Source of the DNA: Escherichia coli
Lineage (GTDB): Bacteria > Pseudomonadota > Gammaproteobacteria > Enterobacterales > Enterobacteriaceae
Direction: 5' to 3' (one strand)
Assembly: GCF_003334765.1 (NCBI RefSeq)
Contig: NZ_QOWT01000008.1
DNA length: 64,000 nucleotides
Shown: piece after piece, positions 15,972-27,990 of the stretch
Layout of the letters: each line of letters opens with the position of its first letter
Position numbering within the stretch: the stretch's first letter is position 1
Translations under genes and position numbers: made by a program
Notes under the pieces: generated by a model
Told to the model about the DNA's origin: nothing
Databases searched by the model: none
What the model saw: only the letters and a program-made list of their open reading frames with translations

Positions 15972-17165
15972 TCAAATCTGTCGTAACTGCGCCTCAACAT
16001 ACAAATAGCCAATTCCCAGCACCTGTTGTGCGCGGCTTAATTGCCCAAAGCCAATTTGCGTCGCTTTCACGCTCGGTCCTTCGTCGCGGTCGAACGGGTT
16101 AAATCCTGTCTGGCGAATAATAGTATTAAGCCAGTTCTCACCAAAGGCACAACTGCGACCGTACAACCAAATCTGATTAATATTGAGGATGTTGAGGAAG
16201 TTATACAGACTCAAACCAATGGCATTGGCAGAGCGATCAACCCAGCTGGTGATCCACGGTTCTCCACTTTGCCAGGCAGCGATTAACTGCGCTGTAGTCA
16301 GTTTTTCAGGATCAAGTTGAGTACTAACCGGTTGTGATTTTAGCCATACCCGCGCCTGTTTTTTTAATGCGCTTAACGAGGCGACGGTTTCCAGGCAGCC
16401 ATAACGTCCACAGTCGCAGACGACGCCATCCGGATTAACGATGGTGTGACCAATCTGTCCGCTACCATACAAACTGCCGCGATAAATTTGCTCGTTAATC
16501 ACGAACGACGAGCCAATGCCGTAATCAACGTTGATCACGCAGAAATCCCGTTCCTGCGAATTATTTTGCCATTTCTCCGCCAGCGCCAGCATCACGCAGT
16601 CATTATCGACCATCACCCGAATGCCGAGCTTCTCTTCCAGCAGATATTTCACCTCCACCGGCGTTGTCCACGGCGCTTGCGGCATGGTTTGCGACACGCC
16701 GGTCACAGGATCAACCTGACCGTGGATTGCCAACGCCAGGTTGATGGTATGGTCCGGCCACAATTTACGGTGGCGATGCCAGCATTTTTCGATTTCGGAC
16801 AGCAGCGCCTGCGGCGTCGGTGCATCAATCTGTAAATACTCAAATTCACCTTTCGGACTTAAACAAGCATTAGCAACCTGACACTCAATACTGGTGGGCG
16901 TCACGTTCAGGCACAGCGTCCAGTCACCTTCCGGCGCAATCAGCCATGTACCGCTACTATGCCCGCGCGTCTGGCTTTCATCGTCAATATTCACCACCCG
17001 TTTTTCGCTTTCCAGTTCCTGCAAAATATTACTGACTGCCGGAATCGAAATTTGCGCCAGCCGGGCCAGCGTTGATTTATTGGCGCGCTTTTGCCGGTAC
17101 AGCAGTTCCAGAATCACGCATTTGTTATGGTGGCGAATCTGTTGATTATTAATGCAGGCTCTCAT
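15972..17165 (-). CDS. yphH: ROK/NagC-family transcriptional regulator YphH
   Basis: ORF 15972..17171; N-terminal HTH, ROK sugar-kinase-like fold with Cys/His zinc motif (CDCGRYGCLE). Confidence 0.8.
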   Translation of the reverse strand: MRACINNQQIRHHNKCVILELLYRQKRANKSTLARLAQISIPAVSNILQELESEKRVVNIDDESQTRGHSSGTWLIAPEGDWTLCLNVTPTSIECQVANACLSPKGEFEYLQIDAPTPQALLSEIEKCWHRHRKLWPDHTINLALAIHGQVDPVTGVSQTMPQAPWTTPVEVKYLLEEKLGIRVMVDNDCVMLALAEKWQNNSQERDFCVINVDYGIGSSFVINEQIYRGSLYGSGQIGHTIVNPDGVVCDCGRYGCLETVASLSALKKQARVWLKSQPVSTQLDPEKLTTAQLIAAWQSGEPWITSWVDRSANAIGLSLYNFLNILNINQIWLYGRSCAFGENWLNTIIRQTGFNPFDRDEGPSVKATQIGFGQLSRAQQVLGIGYLYVEAQLRQI

Positions 17166-17282
17166 CTTCACTAAACCTTGTTTAGTTAATTGCGTGATTA
17201 TTCCGCGAAAACATTGCCAGATTGTTCAATACACTGCCACAAATCTTTTAATTCAGTATGTCTTGTTAATATTGAGGGCACC

Positions 17283-20200
17283 ATGACTCCAGTAAAAGTG
17301 TGGCAAGAGCGCGTTGAGATCCCGACCTATGAAACCGGGCCGCAGGATATACATCCCATGTTCCTGGAAAATCGCGTTTATCAGGGATCGTCCGGCGCGG
17401 TTTATCCCTACGGCGTGACCGATACGCTGAGCGAGCAGAAAACCCTGAAATCCTGGCAGGCGGTGTGGCTGGAAAACGACTACATCAAAGTGATGATCCT
17501 GCCGGAACTGGGCGGTCGGGTGCATCGCGCGTGGGATAAAGTGAAACAGCGCGATTTTGTTTATCACAATGAAGTCATTAAACCTGCGCTGGTGGGGCTG
17601 CTGGGGCCGTGGATTTCCGGTGGGATTGAGTTTAACTGGCCGCAACATCATCGCCCGACCACCTTTATGCCCGTTGATTTCACCCTCGAAGCCCATGAAG
17701 ACGGTGCACAGACGGTGTGGGTAGGCGAAACGGAGCCGATGCATGGTTTACAGGTGATGACAGGTTTCACCCTGCGCCCTGACCGGGCGGCGCTGGAAAT
17801 CGCCAGCCGCGTCTATAACGGGAACGCCACGCCGCGTCATTTCTTGTGGTGGGCCAACCCGGCAGTGAAAGGGGGGGAAGGGCATCAGAGCGTCTTCCCG
17901 CCGGATGTAACGGCGGTGTTTGATCACGGCAAACGGGCCGTCTCCGCTTTCCCCATCGCTACCGGCACTTACTACAAAGTGGACTACTCCGCTGGAGTGG
18001 ACATTTCTCGCTATAAAAATGTGCCTGTTCCAACCTCATATATGGCCGAAAAATCGCAGTACGATTTTGTCGGCGCGTGGTGTCACGATGAAGATGGCGG
18101 TTTGCTGCACGTTGCCAACCACCATATTGCGCCAGGTAAAAAACAGTGGAGTTGGGGACACAGTGAATTTGGCCAGGCGTGGGATAAGAGTCTGACCGAC
18201 AATAACGGCCCGTATATCGAACTGATGACCGGTATTTTTGCCGATAACCAGCCCGATTTTACCTGGCTTGATGCTTACGAAGAGAAGCGTTTTGAGCAGT
18301 ATTTCCTGCCTTATCATTCTTTGGGCATGGTGCAAAATGCCTCCCGCGATGCGGTGATAAAACTCCAGCGTAGTAAGCGGGGGATTGAGTGGGGGCTGTA
18401 TGCCATCTCTCCGTTGAACGGATACCGCCTGGCGATCCGCGAAATCGGTAAATGCAACGCGTTACTTGATGATGCCGTGGCACTGATGCCTGCGACCGCC
18501 ATCCAGGGCGTGTTGCACGGTATCAATCCTGAAAGGCTGACCATTGAGCTCTCCGATGCCGACGGCAATATTGTACTGAGTTATCAGGAACATCAGCCGC
18601 AAGCGTTGCCGTTACCGGACGTCGCCAAAGCGCCACTGGCAGCACAAGACATTACCAGTACAGATGAAGCCTGGTTTATCGGTCAGCATCTGGAGCAATA
18701 TCATCACGCCAGCCGTTCACCGTTCGATTACTACCTGCGCGGCGTGGCGCTGGACCCGCTGGATTATCGCTGTAACCTGGCGCTGGCGATGCTGGAATAT
18801 AACCGCGCAGATTTCCCGCAAGCGGTGGCGTATGCCACTCAGGCTCTGAAACGCGCACATTCGCTGAACAAAAATCCGCAGTGCGGACAGGCGAGTTTGA
18901 TTCGCGCCAGTGCTTACGAACGTCAGGGACAATATCAACAAGCCGAAGAGGATTTCTGGCGTGCGGTCTGGAGCGGCAACAGCAAAGCCGGTGGCTATTA
19001 TGGCCTGGCACGACTGGCGGCGCGTAATGGTAACTTCGACGCTGGTCTGGATTTTTGCCAACAAAGTCTTCGCGCCTGCCCAACCAATCAGGAAGTGCTT
19101 TGCCTGCATAATCTGCTGCTGGTGTTAAGTGGTCGTCAGGACAACGCGCGTGTGCAGCGCGAGAAACTGCTGCGCGATTATCCGCTGAACGCCACTCTGT
19201 GGTGGCTGAACTGGTTCGATGGTCGTAGCGAATCAGCTCTCGCGCAGTGGCGCGGTCTGTGTCAGGGACGCGACGTTAACGCCCTGATGACCGCCGGGCA
19301 ACTGATTAACTGGGGAATGCCCACCCTGGCGGCAGAGATGCTGAACGCACTGGACTGCCAGCGCACGCTGCCGCTTTACCTGCAAGCCAGCTTGCTGCCG
19401 AAAGCCGAACGTGGCGAACTGGTCGCAAAAGCCATTGATGTCTTCCCGCAGTTTGTCCGTTTCCCGAATACGCTGGAAGAAGTGGCGGCGCTGGAGAGTA
19501 TTGAAGAGTGCTGGTTTGCTCGCCATTTACTAGCTTGCTTCTACTACAACAAACGTAGCTACAACAAAGCCATTGCCTTTTGGCAACGTTGCGTAGAGAT
19601 GTCGCCGGAGTTTGCCGACGGCTGGCGCGGGTTAGCGATCCATGCGTGGAATAAGCAACACGATTATGAGCTGGCCGCGCGTTATCTTGATAATGCTTAT
19701 CAGCTTGCGCCGCAGGATGCACGTCTGCTTTTCGAACGGGATTTGCTGGATAAGTTAAGTGGAGCCACACCGGAGAAACGACTGGCGCGTCTGGAAAATA
19801 ATCTGGAAATTGCGCTGAAACGCGACGACATGACCGCAGAACTGCTCAATTTGTGGCATCTCACGGGTCAGGCAGACAAAGCGGCGGACATTCTCGCCAC
19901 GCGCAAATTCCACCCGTGGGAAGGCGGGGAAGGGAAGGTCACCAGTCAGTTTATCCTCAACCAGTTATTACGCGCCTGGCAGCATCTTGATGCCAGACAG
20001 CCGCAGCAGGCCTGCGAACTGCTTCATGCCGCGCTGCATTATCCGGAGAATTTAAGCGAAGGCCGTTTACCGGGGCAAACTGATAACGACATCTGGTTCT
20101 GGCAGGCGATATGCGCCAACGCGCAGGGCGATGAAACTGAAGCGACGCGTTGTTTACGTCTGGCGGCGACCGGCGATCGCACTATTAACATTCACAGTTA

Positions 20201-20564
20201 TTACAACGATCAGCCGGTTGATTATCTCTTCTGGCAAGGGATGGCGCTGCGACTGCTGGGCGAACAACAAACCGCACAGCAACTGTTTAGTGAAATGAAA
20301 CAGTGGGCGCAAGAGATGGCGAAAACCAGTATCGAAGCGGATTTCTTTGCCGTCTCGCAACCTGACTTGTTGTCGCTGTATGGCGATTTACAACAGCAGC
20401 ATAAAGAAAAATGCCTGATGGTGGCGATGCTGGCGTCCGCGGGACTCGGGGAGGTTGCGCAATATGAGTCTGCTCGCGCTGAATTGACGGCGATTAATCC
20501 GGCTTGGCCGAAAGCGGCATTATTCACCACCGTGATGCCTTTTATTTTTAACCGCGTTCACTAA
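17283..20564 (+). CDS. yphG: large uncharacterized protein YphG (about 1093 aa; N-terminal DUF-like domain plus TPR-like repeats)
   Basis: ORF 17190..20564; start placed at ATG 17283 preceded by gaggg; repeated TPR-like motifs in C-terminal half. Confidence 0.75.
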   Translation: MTPVKVWQERVEIPTYETGPQDIHPMFLENRVYQGSSGAVYPYGVTDTLSEQKTLKSWQAVWLENDYIKVMILPELGGRVHRAWDKVKQRDFVYHNEVIKPALVGLLGPWISGGIEFNWPQHHRPTTFMPVDFTLEAHEDGAQTVWVGETEPMHGLQVMTGFTLRPDRAALEIASRVYNGNATPRHFLWWANPAVKGGEGHQSVFPPDVTAVFDHGKRAVSAFPIATGTYYKVDYSAGVDISRYKNVPVPTSYMAEKSQYDFVGAWCHDEDGGLLHVANHHIAPGKKQWSWGHSEFGQAWDKSLTDNNGPYIELMTGIFADNQPDFTWLDAYEEKRFEQYFLPYHSLGMVQNASRDAVIKLQRSKRGIEWGLYAISPLNGYRLAIREIGKCNALLDDAVALMPATAIQGVLHGINPERLTIELSDADGNIVLSYQEHQPQALPLPDVAKAPLAAQDITSTDEAWFIGQHLEQYHHASRSPFDYYLRGVALDPLDYRCNLALAMLEYNRADFPQAVAYATQALKRAHSLNKNPQCGQASLIRASAYERQGQYQQAEEDFWRAVWSGNSKAGGYYGLARLAARNGNFDAGLDFCQQSLRACPTNQEVLCLHNLLLVLSGRQDNARVQREKLLRDYPLNATLWWLNWFDGRSESALAQWRGLCQGRDVNALMTAGQLINWGMPTLAAEMLNALDCQRTLPLYLQASLLPKAERGELVAKAIDVFPQFVRFPNTLEEVAALESIEECWFARHLLACFYYNKRSYNKAIAFWQRCVEMSPEFADGWRGLAIHAWNKQHDYELAARYLDNAYQLAPQDARLLFERDLLDKLSGATPEKRLARLENNLEIALKRDDMTAELLNLWHLTGQADKAADILATRKFHPWEGGEGKVTSQFILNQLLRAWQHLDARQPQQACELLHAALHYPENLSEGRLPGQTDNDIWFWQAICANAQGDETEATRCLRLAATGDRTINIHSYYNDQPVDYLFWQGMALRLLGEQQTAQQLFSEMKQWAQEMAKTSIEADFFAVSQPDLLSLYGDLQQQHKEKCLMVAMLASAGLGEVAQYESARAELTAINPAWPKAALFTTVMPFIFNRVH

Positions 20565-20660
20565 ACCCTATTAACTGTAATATTTGAGCGGCACGCGCTG
20601 CCGCTCATCACAAAATAATTAGAATAAGCCGTTGTTAATAAAAACCCTACAGGAGGCTCT

Positions 20661-21644
20661 ATGCCTACAAAAATGAGAACAACCCGTAATCTATTATTAA
20701 TGGCTACGCTATTAGGTAGCGCACTATTTGCCAGGGCTGCGGAAAAAGAAATGACCATTGGCGCAATATACCTTGATACTCAGGGATACTACGCTGGAGT
20801 GCGTCAGGGCGTTCAGGATGCGGCAAAAGATTCCTCAGTACAAGTTCAGTTAATAGAAACTAACGCCCAGGGTGATATTTCGAAAGAAAGTACCTTTGTT
20901 GATACCCTCGTGGCGCGTAATGTCGATGCCATTATTTTATCGGCAGTGTCTGAAAATGGCAGTAGCCGTACCGTTCGTCGCGCCAGTGAAGCGGGCATTC
21001 CGGTGATTTGCTACAACACCTGTATTAATCAAAAGGGGGTCGATAAATATGTCTCGGCGTATCTGGTCGGCGATCCGCTGGAATTTGGTAAAAAACTGGG
21101 TAACGCTGCCGCTGATTATTTTATTGCCAATAAAATTGACCAGCCGAAAATTGCCGTCATCAATTGCGAAGCCTTTGAAGTTTGTGTGCAGCGACGTAAA
21201 GGATTTGAAGAAGTTTTAAAATCCCGCGTTCCCGGCGCGCAAATTGTCGCTAATCAGGAAGGGACTGTTTTAGATAAAGCGATTTCCGTTGGTGAAAAAC
21301 TAATTATCTCCACGCCGGATCTCAACGCCATTATGGGGGAATCGGGCGGTGCGACACTCGGCGCGGTAAAAGCGGTACGTAATCAAAATCAGGCCGGAAA
21401 AATTGCTGTTTTCGGTTCGGATATGACAACCGAAATTGCTCAGGAGCTGGAAAACAATCAGGTGCTGAAAGCGGTAGTGGATATTTCCGGTAAGAAAATG
21501 GGCAATGCTGTTTTCGCGCAAACATTGAAGGTTATCAATAAACAAGCCGACGGTGAAAAAGTGATTCAGGTGCCTATCGATCTCTATACCAAAACGGAAG
21601 ACGGTAAACAGTGGCTGGCAACGCACGTTGATGGTCTGCCCTAA
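20661..21644 (+). CDS. yphF: ABC sugar transporter periplasmic substrate-binding protein YphF
   Basis: ORF 20661..21644; signal peptide; periplasmic-binding-protein type I fold. Confidence 0.8.
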   Translation: MPTKMRTTRNLLLMATLLGSALFARAAEKEMTIGAIYLDTQGYYAGVRQGVQDAAKDSSVQVQLIETNAQGDISKESTFVDTLVARNVDAIILSAVSENGSSRTVRRASEAGIPVICYNTCINQKGVDKYVSAYLVGDPLEFGKKLGNAAADYFIANKIDQPKIAVINCEAFEVCVQRRKGFEEVLKSRVPGAQIVANQEGTVLDKAISVGEKLIISTPDLNAIMGESGGATLGAVKAVRNQNQAGKIAVFGSDMTTEIAQELENNQVLKAVVDISGKKMGNAVFAQTLKVINKQADGEKVIQVPIDLYTKTEDGKQWLATHVDGLP

Positions 21645-21666
21645 TCGCTGATTCGCAGAGGTCCCT

Positions 21667-23178
21667 ATGTTCACGGCAACAGAGGCAGTCCCGGTAGCAA
21701 AAGTGGTGGCAGGAAATAAGCGTTATCCCGGCGTCGTTGCGCTGGATAACGTTAACTTCACGCTCAATAAAGGCGAAGTTCGTGCGCTGTTAGGTAAAAA
21801 CGGCGCGGGCAAATCGACTCTCATTCGAATGCTTACCGGCAGCGAACGCCCGGATAGCGGTGATATCTGGATTGGCGAGACGCGACTGGAAGGTGACGAA
21901 GCTACGCTGACTCGCCGTGCCGCTGAACTGGGGGTGCGCGCGGTTTATCAGGAGTTAAGTCTGGTGGAAGGGCTGACAGTGGCGGAAAACCTCTGCCTCG
22001 GTCAGTGGCCCCGCCGCAACGGCATGATTGATTACCTGCAAATGGCGCAGGATGCCCAACGTTGCTTACAGGCGCTGGGCGTTGACGTTAGTCCTGAACA
22101 ACTTGTTTCAACGCTAAGCCCGGCGCAAAAGCAGCTGGTGGAAATTGCGCGGGTGATGAAGGGCGAGCCGCGCGTGGTCATTCTTGATGAACCTACCAGT
22201 TCGCTTGCGAGTGCGGAAGTTGAACTGGTGATCAGCGCGGTGAAAAAGATGTCGGCACTGGGCGTGGCGGTGATTTATGTCAGCCACCGGATGGAAGAAA
22301 TTCGCCGCATTGCCTCCTGTGCCACCGTTATGCGCGATGGTCAGGTGGCGGGCGATGTGATGCTCGAAAACACCTCCACGCATCATATTGTGTCGCTGAT
22401 GCTCGGGCGCGATCACGTTGATATTGCGCCGGTAGCCCCTCAGGAAATTGTGGATCAGGCCGTGCTGGAAGTCCGTGCGTTACGCCATAAGCCCAAGCTG
22501 GAGGATATCAGTTTTACGCTACGTCGTGGCGAAGTGCTCGGCATTGCTGGTCTGCTGGGGGCAGGGCGCAGTGAATTGCTGAAGGCGATTGTTGGGCTGG
22601 AGGAGTATGAACAGGGCGAAATTGTTATCAACGGCGAGAAAATCACGCGCCCCGATTACGGCGACATGCTGAAACGCGGCATTGGCTATACGCCAGAAAA
22701 CCGCAAAGAAGCGGGGATCATTCCCTGGTTGGGCGTTGACGAAAATACAGTGCTGACCAATCGGCAAAAAATCAGCGCCAACGGTGTGCTGCAATGGTCC
22801 ACCATCCGCCGCCTGACCGAAGAGGTGATGCAGCGGATGACGGTCAAGGCCGCCAGTAGCGAAACACCCATCGGCACGCTTTCTGGTGGCAATCAGCAAA
22901 AAGTGGTGATCGGTCGTTGGGTCTATGCTGCCAGCCAGATTTTGTTGCTCGACGAGCCAACGCGCGGCGTCGATATCGAAGCCAAACAGCAGATTTACCG
23001 TATTGTCCGTGAGCTGGCTGCCGAAGGAAAAAGCGTGGTGTTTATCTCCAGTGAAGTGGAGGAGTTGCCGCTGGTGTGTGACCGCATCCTGTTATTACAG
23101 CACGGCACGTTCTCGCAGGAGTTTCACGCTCCGGTCAATGTGGATGAGCTGATGTCCGCCATTCTGTCTGTGCACTGA
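21667..23178 (+). CDS. yphE: ABC sugar transporter ATP-binding protein YphE (duplicated ABC domain)
   Basis: ORF 21667..23178; Walker A GKNGAGKST, ABC signature LSGGNQQK, two ABC halves. Confidence 0.85.
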   Translation: MFTATEAVPVAKVVAGNKRYPGVVALDNVNFTLNKGEVRALLGKNGAGKSTLIRMLTGSERPDSGDIWIGETRLEGDEATLTRRAAELGVRAVYQELSLVEGLTVAENLCLGQWPRRNGMIDYLQMAQDAQRCLQALGVDVSPEQLVSTLSPAQKQLVEIARVMKGEPRVVILDEPTSSLASAEVELVISAVKKMSALGVAVIYVSHRMEEIRRIASCATVMRDGQVAGDVMLENTSTHHIVSLMLGRDHVDIAPVAPQEIVDQAVLEVRALRHKPKLEDISFTLRRGEVLGIAGLLGAGRSELLKAIVGLEEYEQGEIVINGEKITRPDYGDMLKRGIGYTPENRKEAGIIPWLGVDENTVLTNRQKISANGVLQWSTIRRLTEEVMQRMTVKAASSETPIGTLSGGNQQKVVIGRWVYAASQILLLDEPTRGVDIEAKQQIYRIVRELAAEGKSVVFISSEVEELPLVCDRILLLQHGTFSQEFHAPVNVDELMSAILSVH

Positions 23179-23202
23179 TGAATTTTACCGAGGAACCTGA
23201 AG

Positions 23203-24201
23203 ATGTCTGCTTCGTCATTACCATTGCCGCAGGGCAAGAGCGTCTCGCTCAAACAATTTGTCAGTCGCCATATTAATGAGATCGGTTTGCTGGTGGTGAT
23301 TGCCATTCTTTATCTGGTCTTCTCCCTGAACGCGCCTGGCTTTATCTCATTGAATAACCAGATGAACGTGCTGCGCGATGCCGCCACCATTGGGATTGCC
23401 GCCTGGGCGATGACGCTGATTATTATCTCCGGTGAAATTGATGTCAGCGTTGGGCCGATGGTGGCTTTTGTCTCGGTGTGCCTGGCATTTTTGCTGCAAT
23501 TTGAAGTTCCGCTGGCGGTGGCGTGCCTGCTGGTGTTGCTGTTAGGCGCGCTGATGGGAACGCTGGCCGGGGTGCTGCGCGGCGTGTTTAATGTACCAAG
23601 TTTCGTTGCCACACTGGGGCTGTGGAGCGCCCTGCGCGGAATGGGGCTGTTTATGACGAACGCACTGCCAGTGCCGATTGATGAAAACGAGGTGCTGGAC
23701 TGGCTGGGCGGACAATTTCTCGGTGTGCCGGTATCCGCGCTGATCATGATTGTGTTGTTTGCGCTGTTTGTGTTCATCAGCCGCAAAACCGCCTTCGGGC
23801 GCTCGGTTTTTGCCGTTGGCGGTAATGCTACGGCGGCGCAGTTGTGCGGCATCAACGTTCGTCGGGTGCGCATTCTTATCTTTACCCTTTCGGGATTATT
23901 AGCGGCGGTGACCGGCATTTTGTTGGCGGCGCGCCTCGGTTCTGGTAACGCAGGTGCCGCAAACGGTCTGGAGTTTGACGTCATCGCCGCGGTCGTGGTC
24001 GGCGGTACGGCACTTTCCGGCGGTCGCGGTTCCCTGTTCGGTACATTGCTTGGTGTGCTGGTGATTACGCTAATCGGTAACGGTCTGGTGCTGCTCGGTA
24101 TTAACTCCTTTTTCCAGCAGGTGGTACGCGGCGTCATCATCGTGGTGGCGGTGCTGGCGAATATCTTGCTGACCCAGCGAAGCAGTAAAGCGAAACGCTA
24201 A
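23203..24201 (+). CDS. yphD: ABC sugar transporter permease YphD
   Basis: ORF 23203..24201; multi-pass hydrophobic protein of ribose/xylose-type permease family. Confidence 0.8.
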   Translation: MSASSLPLPQGKSVSLKQFVSRHINEIGLLVVIAILYLVFSLNAPGFISLNNQMNVLRDAATIGIAAWAMTLIIISGEIDVSVGPMVAFVSVCLAFLLQFEVPLAVACLLVLLLGALMGTLAGVLRGVFNVPSFVATLGLWSALRGMGLFMTNALPVPIDENEVLDWLGGQFLGVPVSALIMIVLFALFVFISRKTAFGRSVFAVGGNATAAQLCGINVRRVRILIFTLSGLLAAVTGILLAARLGSGNAGAANGLEFDVIAAVVVGGTALSGGRGSLFGTLLGVLVITLIGNGLVLLGINSFFQQVVRGVIIVVAVLANILLTQRSSKAKR

Positions 24202-24266
24202 ACCTTAACGCCCCTGGCGCGGGTGCGGCAGGGATGAAAATTAATCGTATTGTTAATGAGGGATTT

Positions 24267-25328
24267 ATGAAAACGATGCTGGCAGCTTATTTACCAGGAA
24301 ATTCGACCGTCGATCTGCGGGAAGTTGCGGTGCCGACGCCGGGGATTAACCAGGTACTGATCAAAATGAAATCCTCCGGGATTTGCGGAAGCGATGTCCA
24401 CTATATCTATCATCAACACCGTGCCACAGCGGCGGCACCCGATAAACCGTTATACCAGGGCTTTATCAACGGTCATGAACCGTGCGGGCAGATTGTGGCG
24501 ATGGGGCAAGGCTGCCGCCATTTTAAAGAGGGCGACCGCGTGCTGGTGTATCACATTTCTGGCTGTGGTTTTTGCCCGAACTGCCGTCGCGGTTTTCCTA
24601 TTTCTTGTACTGGCGAAGGAAAAGCGGCTTACGGCTGGCAGCGTGACGGCGGTCATGCCGAATACTTGCTGGCGGAAGAAAAAGATCTGATCCTCCTGCC
24701 GGATGCGCTGAGCTACGAAGATGGTGCGTTTATCAGTTGCGGCGTTGGTACAGCGTATGAAGGAATTTTGCGCGGCGAAGTTTCCGGCAGTGATAACGTG
24801 CTGGTGGTCGGTCTGGGGCCAGTCGGCATGATGGCGATGATGCTGGCGAAAGGTCGCGGTGCAAAACGGATCATCGGCGTTGATATGCTGCCGGAACGTC
24901 TGGCGATGGCAAAACAGTTAGGGGTGATGGATCACGGCTATTTAGCAACCACCGAAGGTCTGCCGCAGATTATCGCCGAACTCACCCACGGTGGCGCGGA
25001 TGTTGCGCTCGATTGTTCCGGTAATGCCGCAGGTCGCTTGCTGGCACTGCAATCCACCGCTGACTGGGGACGGGTGGTTTACATTGGTGAAACCGGAAAA
25101 GTGGAATTCGAGGTCAGCGCCGATCTGATGCACCATCAACGGCGGATTATCGGCTCCTGGGTGACCAGTCTGTTCCATATGGAAAAATGCGCCCATGATC
25201 TGACGGACTGGAAGCTGTGGCCGCGTAACGCCATTACCCATCGCTTCTCGCTGGAACAGGCAGGTGATGCCTATGCGCTGATGGCGAGCGGCAAATGCGG
25301 GAAAGTTGTGATTAACTTCCCGGATTAA
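24267..25328 (+). CDS. yphC: zinc-dependent alcohol/polyol dehydrogenase YphC
   Basis: ORF 24234..25328; GHE..G zinc-ADH signature, GxGxxG Rossmann motif (GLGPVG); start at ATG 24267 after gaggg. Confidence 0.8.
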   Translation: MKTMLAAYLPGNSTVDLREVAVPTPGINQVLIKMKSSGICGSDVHYIYHQHRATAAAPDKPLYQGFINGHEPCGQIVAMGQGCRHFKEGDRVLVYHISGCGFCPNCRRGFPISCTGEGKAAYGWQRDGGHAEYLLAEEKDLILLPDALSYEDGAFISCGVGTAYEGILRGEVSGSDNVLVVGLGPVGMMAMMLAKGRGAKRIIGVDMLPERLAMAKQLGVMDHGYLATTEGLPQIIAELTHGGADVALDCSGNAAGRLLALQSTADWGRVVYIGETGKVEFEVSADLMHHQRRIIGSWVTSLFHMEKCAHDLTDWKLWPRNAITHRFSLEQAGDAYALMASGKCGKVVINFPD

Positions 25329-25339
25329 GGAGTTAGCGG

Positions 25340-26212
25340 ATGACCATCTATACCTTATCCCACGGGTCGCTAAAGCTGGACGTTTCTGACCAGGGCGGCG
25401 TAATCGAAGGCTTCTGGCGCGATACGACGCCGCTCTTACGTCCTGGTAAAAAAAGCGGTGTGGCAACCGATGCCTCATGTTTTCCGCTGGTGCCATTTGC
25501 AAACCGGGTGAGCGGCAATCGTTTTGTCTGGCAGGGGCGTGAGTATCAACTGCAACCGAATGTTGAGTGGGATGCGCACTATCTACACGGCGATGGCTGG
25601 CTGGGCGAGTGGCAATGTGTCTCGCACAGCGATGATAGTTTGTGTCTGGTGTATGAACATCGCAGCGGTGTCTATCACTATCGGGTAAGTCAGGCGTTTC
25701 ATTTAACGGCGGATACGCTGACGGTGACGCTCTCTGTCACCAATCAAGGGGCAGAGACGCTGCCATTTGGTACCGGCTGGCATCCTTATTTTCCGTTGTC
25801 GCCGCAAACGCGGATTCAGGCACAGGCGAGCGGTTACTGGCTGGAGCGGGAGCAGTGGCTGGCGGGTGAGTTTTGCGAGCAGCTACCGCAGGAACTGGAT
25901 TTTAACCAGCCCGCGCCGTTGCCGCGCCAGTGGGTGAACAATGGTTTTGCCGGATGGAATGGTCAGGCCCGCATCGAGCAGCCGCAGGAAGGTTATGCCA
26001 TCATCATGGAAACGACGCCACCTGCACCGTGTTATTTCATCTTTGTTTCCGACCCTGCGTTTGATAAAGGATATGCGTTTGATTTCTTCTGTCTGGAACC
26101 GATGAGCCATGCGCCGGATGATCATCATCGCCCGGAAGGGGGTGATCTCATTGCGCTAGCACCAGGGGAATCAACAACTTCAGAGATGTCGTTGCGGGTA
26201 GAGTGGCTGTAA
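25340..26212 (+). CDS. yphB: aldose 1-epimerase (mutarotase)-like protein YphB
   Basis: ORF 25340..26212, 290 aa. Confidence 0.75.
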   Translation: MTIYTLSHGSLKLDVSDQGGVIEGFWRDTTPLLRPGKKSGVATDASCFPLVPFANRVSGNRFVWQGREYQLQPNVEWDAHYLHGDGWLGEWQCVSHSDDSLCLVYEHRSGVYHYRVSQAFHLTADTLTVTLSVTNQGAETLPFGTGWHPYFPLSPQTRIQAQASGYWLEREQWLAGEFCEQLPQELDFNQPAPLPRQWVNNGFAGWNGQARIEQPQEGYAIIMETTPPAPCYFIFVSDPAFDKGYAFDFFCLEPMSHAPDDHHRPEGGDLIALAPGESTTSEMSLRVEWL

Positions 26213-26222
26213 TTTATTAAAT

Positions 26223-26252
26223 GCCGGATAAGGCGTTCACGCCGCATCCGGC
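26223..26252. repeat. single REP palindromic unit between yphB and yphA
   Basis: gccggataaggcgttcacgccgcatccggc. Confidence 0.75.
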
Positions 26253-26259
26253 ATCTTTC

Positions 26260-26682
26260 CTAACGCCGATCGAGAGAAATTGCCCCCGGCCCGGTAATTG
26301 CCAATAGCAAGAACGCGCCAGCGATACTGACATTCTTCCAGAAATTAATCATATTTGGCCCAACCGCATCGCCGGTCATATCCCAGTAATGGTGACCAAT
26401 CACCGCCGTACCCAGCGTGTAGAAAATAAACAGCACCGCCAGCGGACGGGTGAAAAAGCCAAGCACGATTAATATCGCGGCGGGCACTTCCATAACTACC
26501 GCAATAATCGCTGCCAGCATCGGCATTGGCGCGCCCAACGAGGCCATATATTGGACCGTACCGTCAAAGCCCATCATTTTGGGAAAACCAAAAATAATGA
26601 AAATTAAGACCACGGCGATACGGGCAATTAATAACAAAACGGGGCGGGCAGCTCCAAAATCAAAATAACGTAGTGTGTTCAT
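26260..26682 (-). CDS. yphA: DoxX-family inner membrane protein YphA
   Basis: ORF 26260..26754, start at internal Met ([10 protein letters not shown]...), 140 aa, four hydrophobic segments. Confidence 0.75.

Positions 26683-26778: not shown

Positions 26779-27990
<1,212 letters not shown>

Follow-up and report, generated by a model that had tools for sequence, protein, structure and literature searches.

The genes yphH to yphA occupy positions 15972–26682 of a 64,000-nucleotide stretch of Escherichia coli DNA (assembly GCF_003334765.1, contig NZ_QOWT01000008.1), which in its full length is called the window here. They are a known orphan sugar locus of E. coli, a typical operon of regulator, transporter, and enzymes that is still unsolved. 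Our main finding concerns its largest product, YphG, whose N-terminal domain is predicted to have the fold of galactose mutarotases and is followed by a long superhelix of tetratricopeptide repeats (TPR). YphG belongs to the mutarotase superfamily by fold and not by sequence, and its domain architecture has no characterized example.

We propose that yphGFEDCB is a sugar operon under the control of YphH and that YphG is its key, cofactor-independent enzyme; our confidence in this chain as a whole is slightly less than even. YphH would repress the operon at palindromes before yphG and before yphF until the sugar, or a derivative of it, binds. YphFED would import a neutral carbohydrate of monosaccharide size, a task that in most other bacteria would fall to a XylE-like sugar porter of the major facilitator superfamily (MFS) encoded at this position. 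YphG would then carry out the key cytoplasmic step with an active site in the mutarotase-fold supersandwich, completed or capped by the TPR superhelix, and would act at or next to the anomeric carbon by converting the ring form or the anomer of a free aldose, or the aldose into a ketose. YphB, or GalM in other phyla, would supply or remove the correct anomer, and YphC would be a lineage-specific addition that oxidizes or reduces the substrate or the product. The sugar would have the galacto configuration, like D-galactose or L-arabinopyranose, or would be derived from such a sugar.

The locus itself is ordinary and long annotated; the breadth of the YphG family and a sharpened hypothesis are what make the gap testable. 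We regard as possible, if doubtful, the wider claim that proteins combining the DUF5107 domain with TPR are a large, cross-phylum, carbohydrate-active family of undescribed activity, either sugar isomerases or ring-form converters or a new glycoside hydrolase (GH) family; the latter option would mean that a TPR solenoid clamps a mutarotase-like supersandwich that is itself catalytic. Such a family would supply a missing cytoplasmic step for galactose-type sugars, from the core genome of E. coli to the polysaccharide-utilization loci of Bacteroidota. YphG is a better target than the label "TPR protein" implies, being a core-genome gene whose family has thousands of clusters across Proteobacteria, Bacteroidota, Firmicutes, and Bifidobacterium. 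Glycan degraders of gut, soil, and sea encode its homologues next to sugar porters and galactosidase-type enzymes, and its mutarotase-fold domain, for which no activity is known, is strongly conserved in the way of an enzyme. Solving YphG would close a gap in E. coli carbohydrate metabolism and annotate a recurrent gene of polysaccharide-utilization loci. With the comparison reported here, the question comes down to one regulator, two candidate operators, and a neutral substrate, probably galacto-type, that is either a monosaccharide or a small glycoside.

Fold and conservation of YphG

The yphG gene (17283–20564, plus strand) encodes a protein of 1093 amino acids without a signal peptide. An alignment of 70 full-length relatives, 27–74% identical and aligned across the whole of about 1100 residues, was used as input for an AlphaFold2 model with a predicted local distance difference test score (pLDDT) of 94.9 and a predicted template modeling score (pTM) of 0.93. 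Three parts can be distinguished in the model: residues 1–345 form a large beta supersandwich of the mutarotase fold, residues 357–435 a small beta-sandwich, and residues 460–1092 a TPR superhelix of 34 helices arranged in about 17 TPR-like hairpins. A Pfam scan found DUF5107 (PF17128) at residues 39–324 (E 3.1e-55) together with weak TPR matches; only these families were matched, with no Aldose_epim among them. Fold searching, which the initial annotation had recommended together with structure prediction, returned a galactose-mutarotase supersandwich for the N-terminal domain and the tandem helix-turn-helix repeats of a TPR superhelix for the C-terminal part. The closest structural matches of the C-terminal half are true TPR superhelices (OGT, Ski3, Ctr9, and APC subunits), on which ground an (alpha/alpha)-toroid of the GH15, GH65, GH94, or PL8 kind was rejected. 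The description of YphG as TPR-like in the initial annotation is thus accurate for the C-terminal arm and incomplete for the protein, which has the DUF5107 domain (Pfam E 3e-55) at its N-terminus as well. That annotation also saw no obvious catalytic assignment for YphG; the literature searches made here indeed gave no function, although the mutarotase-fold domain now makes a catalytic role plausible.

The family is large, with 5842 clusters at 50% identity for E ≤ 1e-3 and 1152 for E ≤ 1e-30, and its full length is conserved. Between E. coli and Bacteroidota or Firmicutes the N-terminal domain is 54–57% identical, and the whole protein about 40%. This domain has 67 invariant alignment columns, rich in His, Glu, Asp, Asn, Lys, and Trp, which include E64, N65, D85, K86, K100, E116, N118, H122, H123, E172, N179, W190, N192, H215, D240, K287, W291, W300, E313, N322, Q323, D325, and E333. 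In the TPR part the near-invariant polar residues are R782, E818, and those of a PWEGGEG loop around residue 880. When the N-terminal domain was modeled without the TPR part, the confidence of the conserved loops 28–40 and 105–107 fell from above 90 to below 50. From this loss we infer that the TPR arm packs on the conserved surface of the N-terminal domain and completes it.

TPR superhelices usually bind proteins or peptides, and the best matches of the C-terminal half, OGT, Ski3, Ctr9, and APC subunits, are of this class. YphG might accordingly not be an enzyme at all. It might instead bind sugar as a sensor or scaffold, with the TPR arm touching the regulator or the transporter much as PtsG controls Mlc; protein contacts can control regulators of the ROK family, such as Mlc. 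The dense set of invariant polar residues and the 54–57% identity across phyla nevertheless look like those of an active site, and we consider a purely non-enzymatic role improbable. The genomic context described below adds two further objections to it.

YphG loci in other bacteria

A family scan with one genome per species yielded at least 600 stretches, from which 80 loci were kept; they come from Enterobacterales, Aeromonas, Photobacterium, many Bacteroidota, Paenibacillus, Cohnella, Lachnospiraceae, Ruminococcaceae, and Bifidobacterium. To count neighbors, open reading frames (ORFs) were called in 84 loci and clustered by all-against-all BLASTP, and representatives were annotated. The most frequent neighbor, present in 49 of the 84 loci, is an MFS sugar porter closest to XylE, which is usually adjacent to YphG and often separated from it by only 3–40 bp. 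An AraC-type regulator was found in 48 loci and a ROK regulator in 17; a GH2 protein resembling the exo-beta-1,4-galactosidase BT4151 is encoded in 29, a YphB-type epimerase in 17 (gammaproteobacteria only), GalM in 11, and a CUT2 ATPase of the ATP-binding cassette (ABC) type also in 11. GH97 alpha-galactosidases, GH36, GH35, SusC/SusD, and sulfatases are further recurrent neighbors, to which we would add what we take by eye from the sequences to be GH95 and GH30 proteins, although no profile matched them. Together these neighbors point to galactose- or L-arabinopyranose-type sugars. As read from gene content, the conserved core consists of YphG together with a regulator and a transporter of monosaccharide type, to which a mutarotase is often added. 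The pairing of YphG with two unrelated families of regulators, ROK in 17 loci and AraC in 48, is hard to reconcile with a sensor that contacts its regulator.

The history of the E. coli arrangement can be followed in its relatives. Aeromonas, Serratia, Limnobaculum, and Mixta have a four-gene unit in which a ROK regulator is divergent from YphG, MFS porter, and epimerase; neither a dehydrogenase nor an ABC system is present. In Citrobacter, Cedecea, and Enterobacter the same unit is found at the chromosomal site of the E. coli locus, adjoining hcaT and csiE. This synteny implies that E. coli, E. albertii, and one Enterobacter exchanged the MFS porter for yphFED and gained yphC. Most loci have no yphA homologue, or have it on the opposite side of yphH; the link of yphA to the system appears weak, and we do not count it as a part. 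The initial annotation had read the whole cluster as a substrate-specific catabolic module, which holds for a sugar-utilization cluster and not for yphA, as the latter is not consistently linked.

Citrobacter, Cedecea, and Enterobacter have a second orphan cluster beside the yph core (loci L011, L016, L017, L021, and L023; for example, L021 17602–19236). It encodes an FGGY pentulose kinase and a KpsF/GutQ-like sugar-phosphate isomerase, along with a RhaS/LsrB-like binding protein and a CUT2 ABC system that has two permeases. This kinase, isomerase, and ABC cluster was considered as a part of the system, as were hcaT and csiE, and all were judged to be flanking synteny.

In the Bacteroidota loci the glycosidases, sulfatases, and esterases have signal peptides and the YphG homologue, the MFS porter, and GalM do not. 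This distribution argues that YphG is cytoplasmic and acts on what a monosaccharide-type porter brings in. Some loci depart from the common pattern. Photobacterium and Citrobacter sp. FP75 have a MelB-like symporter of the GPH family in place of the sugar porter, and FP75 has GH36 in addition. A distant clade, 29–36% identical, keeps the invariant residues but bears signal peptides, and it occurs in SusC/SusD loci with GH16 and sulfatases nearby. Secreted paralogues of this kind cannot be cytoplasmic regulators, which is the second objection to a sensor or scaffold.

Two loci of the distant kind deserve a separate remark. The DUF5107-TPR paralogues at L090 10001–13303 and L091 6547–9876 carry signal peptides and lie in SusC/SusD loci with GH16, sulfatases, and beta-helix proteins, which indicates an extracytoplasmic branch of the family. 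In six loci of marine Flavobacteriia (L032, L046, L051, L055, L078, and L082) the gene order is sulfatase, MFS porter, SGNH esterase, GH2, YphG homologue, sulfatases, and GH2. SusC/SusD lie near one of them, and four add a GH30-like protein and an unannotated secreted family of about 480 amino acids; the target of this locus is probably a sulfated, acetylated algal glycan.

Reaction proposed for YphG

That YphG is a simple mutarotase is unlikely, as a canonical mutarotase is often encoded alongside it, and the reaction of YphG therefore probably differs from that of a mutarotase. This frequent neighbor also counts, with a number of other points, against the isomerase-type reaction that we favor. 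When DUF5107 was compared with alignments of GalM and YphB by hhalign (local, global, and low-mact), the probability stayed below 2%; with nothing significant and the catalytic residues not mappable, the sequence route from DUF5107 to the mutarotases was given up. The catalytic residues of E. coli GalM are H104, H175, and E309. YphG has the invariant H122, H123, H215, and E313, with no reliable residue-level alignment of these to the His/His/Glu of GalM. The 630-residue TPR arm is not accounted for by the proposed chemistry, and no conserved downstream kinase or aldolase that would point to a product was found in the YphG loci. In Firmicutes and Bifidobacterium the YphG gene is adjacent to or overlaps one for a cytoplasmic GH2, and the distant clade is secreted in polysaccharide-utilization loci; both observations fit a glycosidase at least as well.

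Could YphG then be a glycoside hydrolase of a new family, or another enzyme that cleaves the glycosidic bond of a small galactoside, perhaps a galactosyl-polyol or a disaccharide, after its import? In such a pathway YphB would anomerize the freed sugar and YphC would, in E. coli, oxidize the freed aglycone, which gives YphC a neat role. The secreted paralogues speak for it, as they retain the invariant residues in SusC/SusD loci with GH16 and sulfatases; so do the translational coupling or adjacency of YphG to cytoplasmic GH2 in Bifidobacterium and Firmicutes and the MelB-like glycoside symporters of Photobacterium and Citrobacter sp. FP75, the latter with GH36. DUF5107 is also listed among the "digestive" marker families of phagotrophic stramenopiles (PMC8163842). 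A catalytic supersandwich has a precedent in the beta-1,2-glucanases OpgG and OpgD of GH186, whose nearest glycosidase relative is the GH38 C-terminal domain (PMC10514313), a domain that YphG matches structurally as well. OpgG and OpgD scored 12.2–12.6 against YphG and are not its closest structural relatives. They are, to our knowledge, the sole family with a catalytic supersandwich of this kind.

A glycosidase is nonetheless a poorer fit to the fold ranking than an enzyme that converts a free aldose. The associated transporters are mainly of monosaccharide types, XylE-like sugar porters and CUT2 systems, and the glycosidases of Bacteroidota are periplasmic, whereas YphG is cytoplasmic. We judge cleavage of a glycosidic bond by YphG to be unlikely, though still a serious contender, and favor a reaction at or next to the anomeric carbon of a free sugar.

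YphH and the candidate operators

The yphH gene (15972–17165, minus strand) is divergent from yphG and encodes a NagC/Mlc-like transcription factor. Its assignment to the ROK family in the initial annotation is borne out: the NCBIfam NagC and Mlc models match residues 9–342, below their equivalog cut-offs, and Pfam ROK is recorded for orthologues. The protein has a sugar-kinase-like ROK domain and an N-terminal DNA-binding domain, and a conserved palindrome, its candidate operator, lies beside the gene. Orthologues of YphH are 44–60% identical and are encoded divergently beside YphG in 17 gammaproteobacterial loci. YphH has been called the "third uncharacterized ROK repressor" of E. coli, and its group is without the conserved Gly-Arg linker motif, unlike NagC and Mlc (PMC4288165).

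The intergenic region between the ROK and YphG genes was aligned for 15 loci from ten genera. The candidate YphH site, O1, is the palindrome TTCACTAAAC-ctt-GTTTAGTTAA at 17167–17189, directly beside the yphH start codon; it is an inverted repeat with arms of 10 nt that are 90% complementary, and the block is kept in Escherichia, Enterobacter, Serratia, Hafnia, Citrobacter, Cedecea, Rahnella, Mixta, Limnobaculum, and Aeromonas. Adjoining it is a near-invariant block of the same alignment with the consensus ATTGCGTGA (17189–17197), possibly part of a promoter or a half-site for CRP. A complete CRP site was rejected, as the block resembles the left half-site and the right half is poor. A weaker conserved block, TTCAGTATGTCTTGTTAATATT at 17254–17275, just 5' of the yphG ribosome-binding site, partly conserves the pattern TT.A.T.T...T..TT.A and is a possible second operator.

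A second copy of the motif, CACTAAACCCTATTAACTG, is found at 20559–20577, where it overlaps the stop codon of yphG, 84 bp ahead of yphF. The pattern CACTAAACNNNRTTWASTD, built from O1, has only these two matches in the window, with 0 expected from 100 shuffles. In 13 gammaproteobacterial loci a degenerate form of the motif occurs at the corresponding position between the ROK and YphG genes; the 72 other loci gave only 3 stray matches. Since the shared motif occurs only before yphG and yphF, it supports control of both yphG and yphFEDCB by one regulator, most simply YphH. Co-regulation, on which the initial annotation had said its reading could fail, is supported in this way. From its position, the second copy may belong to a regulated promoter inside the operon or take part in a repression loop there.

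The spacer between yphG and yphF also contains a GC-rich hairpin, GAGCGGCA-cgcgc-TGCCGCTC (20586–20606, plus strand), which was read from the sequence and is without a U-tract. It could be an element for RNA stability or processing, or it could act as a weak terminator and so uncouple yphG from yphFEDCB. The convergent genes yphB and yphA are separated by GCCGGATAAGGCGTTCACGCCGCATCCGGC (26223–26252), which by the E. coli consensus we take to be a palindromic element of the repetitive extragenic palindromic (REP) type. No RNA family of Rfam was matched in the yph region. Scans for consensus promoters and terminators gave counts at or near the shuffle expectation and were not used.

Transporter, dehydrogenase, and epimerase

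The complete ABC sugar importer described by the initial annotation is confirmed as one of the CUT2 type with a binding protein, a fused ATPase, and one permease. All three components have profile matches to this type, but every match stays below the equivalog cut-off, and homology therefore does not give the substrate. YphF (20661–21644, plus strand), the periplasmic sugar-binding protein, has weak, below-cut-off NCBIfam matches to AlsB, MglB, LsrB, RbsB, and YtfQ. Its best solved relative, 5HSG, is an apo structure with no informative ligand, and the attempt to derive a ligand from homology or solved structures was abandoned, all equivalog models being far below cut-off. YphE (21667–23178, plus strand), the fused double ATPase of 503 amino acids, matches AraG-, XylG-, AlsA-, and MglA-type models with E-values of 1e-136 to 1e-115, all below the equivalog cut-offs, and YphD (23203–24201, plus strand), the single permease, matches RbsC/AraH-type models. 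YphF rose in a levoglucosan proteome, along with XylF, MalE, MglA, and YtfQ (PMC8753852), which looks like general catabolite derepression.

YphC (24234–25328, plus strand) is an accessory protein absent from most YphG loci and was found near YphG in 9 of the 84. The zinc-dependent dehydrogenase of the initial annotation holds at the level of family, as does its assignment of YphA to DoxX. Scores of 171 bits against the L-threonine 3-dehydrogenase (Tdh) model (cut-off 380) and 169 bits against that of scyllo-inosose 3-dehydrogenase IolM (cut-off 450), the closest NCBIfam models, support an assignment of YphC only to the zinc-type medium-chain dehydrogenase superfamily. Among solved structures, alcohol, xylitol, threonine, and sorbitol dehydrogenases come closest to it. 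A role as a YcjQ-like guloside dehydrogenase was rejected, the similarity to YcjQ being weak and partial (27% over 143 residues).

The nature of YphC raises the question of whether the E. coli operon is primarily a polyol pathway, in which YphFED would import the polyol and YphC would oxidize it to a sugar that is then handled by YphB and YphG. YphC resembles xylitol, sorbitol, galactitol-1-phosphate, and scyllo-inosose dehydrogenases, and one Lachnospiraceae genome has a CUT2 ABC system and two YphC-like genes 2.7 kb downstream of the YphG homologue. The binding proteins of Firmicutes, however, are only about 25% identical to YphF and were rejected as orthologues, and YphC is missing from most YphG loci, close enterobacterial ones included. 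Because YphC and the ABC system are lineage-specific, a polyol, which the initial annotation had allowed for beside a carbohydrate, is not favored as the ancestral substrate; a polyol pathway as the main function in E. coli has, in our view, little to recommend it. The import of a galacto-type sugar remains our preferred reading.

YphB (25340–26212, plus strand) was well described as mutarotase-like. It is identical to PDB entry 3NRE, a structural genomics structure named "aldose 1-epimerase" with a predicted function, and has the family fold and sequence of aldose-1-epimerases. Its orthologues follow YphG in 17 of the 17 gammaproteobacterial loci with a ROK regulator.

The locus and its annotation

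Eight intact ORFs, yphH to yphA, were found exactly in the order and at the positions previously assigned to them, with glyA and the hca genes on either side. The last of them, yphA (26260–26682, minus strand), is annotated as a DoxX-family inner-membrane protein, and its membership in the system is doubtful. The spacings from yphF to yphB are 11–32 bp, which would fit one transcript. For yphC two start codons are annotated: 24234 by PGAP, giving 364 amino acids, and 24267 in K-12 RefSeq, giving 353. The yph stretch is 100% identical to E. coli chromosomes that carry the annotations yphH to yphA, and 5371 of 5426 complete E. coli genomes contain at least 80% of it, which makes it a core-genome locus.

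The initial annotation was right that the substrate is not established. Every yph product is "putative" in K-12 RefSeq (2026 copy), and full-text literature searches for all yph gene names, DUF5107, PF17128, IPR033396, 5CD6, and BDI_1685 gave no functional study and no substrate. What they yielded was limited to the levoglucosan proteome described above, the use of Klebsiella yphG as a marker for the polymerase chain reaction, and lists of uncharacterized regulators.

Next to the locus, hcaD is intact in the window (26779–27981, 400 amino acids) and is annotated as a frameshifted pseudogene in strain WP5-S17-ESBL-10 (L001 16808–18015), the yph region of which is otherwise 100% identical to the window.

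Comparison with known systems

Known mutarotases (GalM, YeaD, the yeast hexose-6-phosphate mutarotase, and YphB) have no detectable sequence-profile likeness to YphG, which compared with them has about 45 extra N-terminal residues, the small beta-sandwich, and the 630-residue TPR superhelix. The only solved relative of YphG is PDB entry 5CD6 (BDI_1685 of Parabacteroides distasonis), an unannotated structural genomics entry; at 575 residues it is half the length of YphG, and most of the TPR arm is missing.

Regulation of the operon would resemble that by NagC and Mlc in that the operator-like sequence is a palindrome of about 23 bp (PMC4288165 for the family) and YphH is divergent from its putative target operon; the sequence itself differs from the NagC/Mlc operator.

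The most instructive parallel is the ycj cluster, formerly another orphan sugar cluster of E. coli with an ABC importer and a zinc-type dehydrogenase, which enzymology has since solved. Its importer is of the CUT1 type, whereas that of yph is CUT2, and it has no DUF5107 protein and includes an epimerase and a phosphorylase. Its genes have specific enzyme names, derived from experiment, in the same K-12 RefSeq record in which all yph products are putative, and, judged by these annotated names, it proved to handle unusual glucosides and gulosides; it can serve as a model for how the yph locus might be solved.

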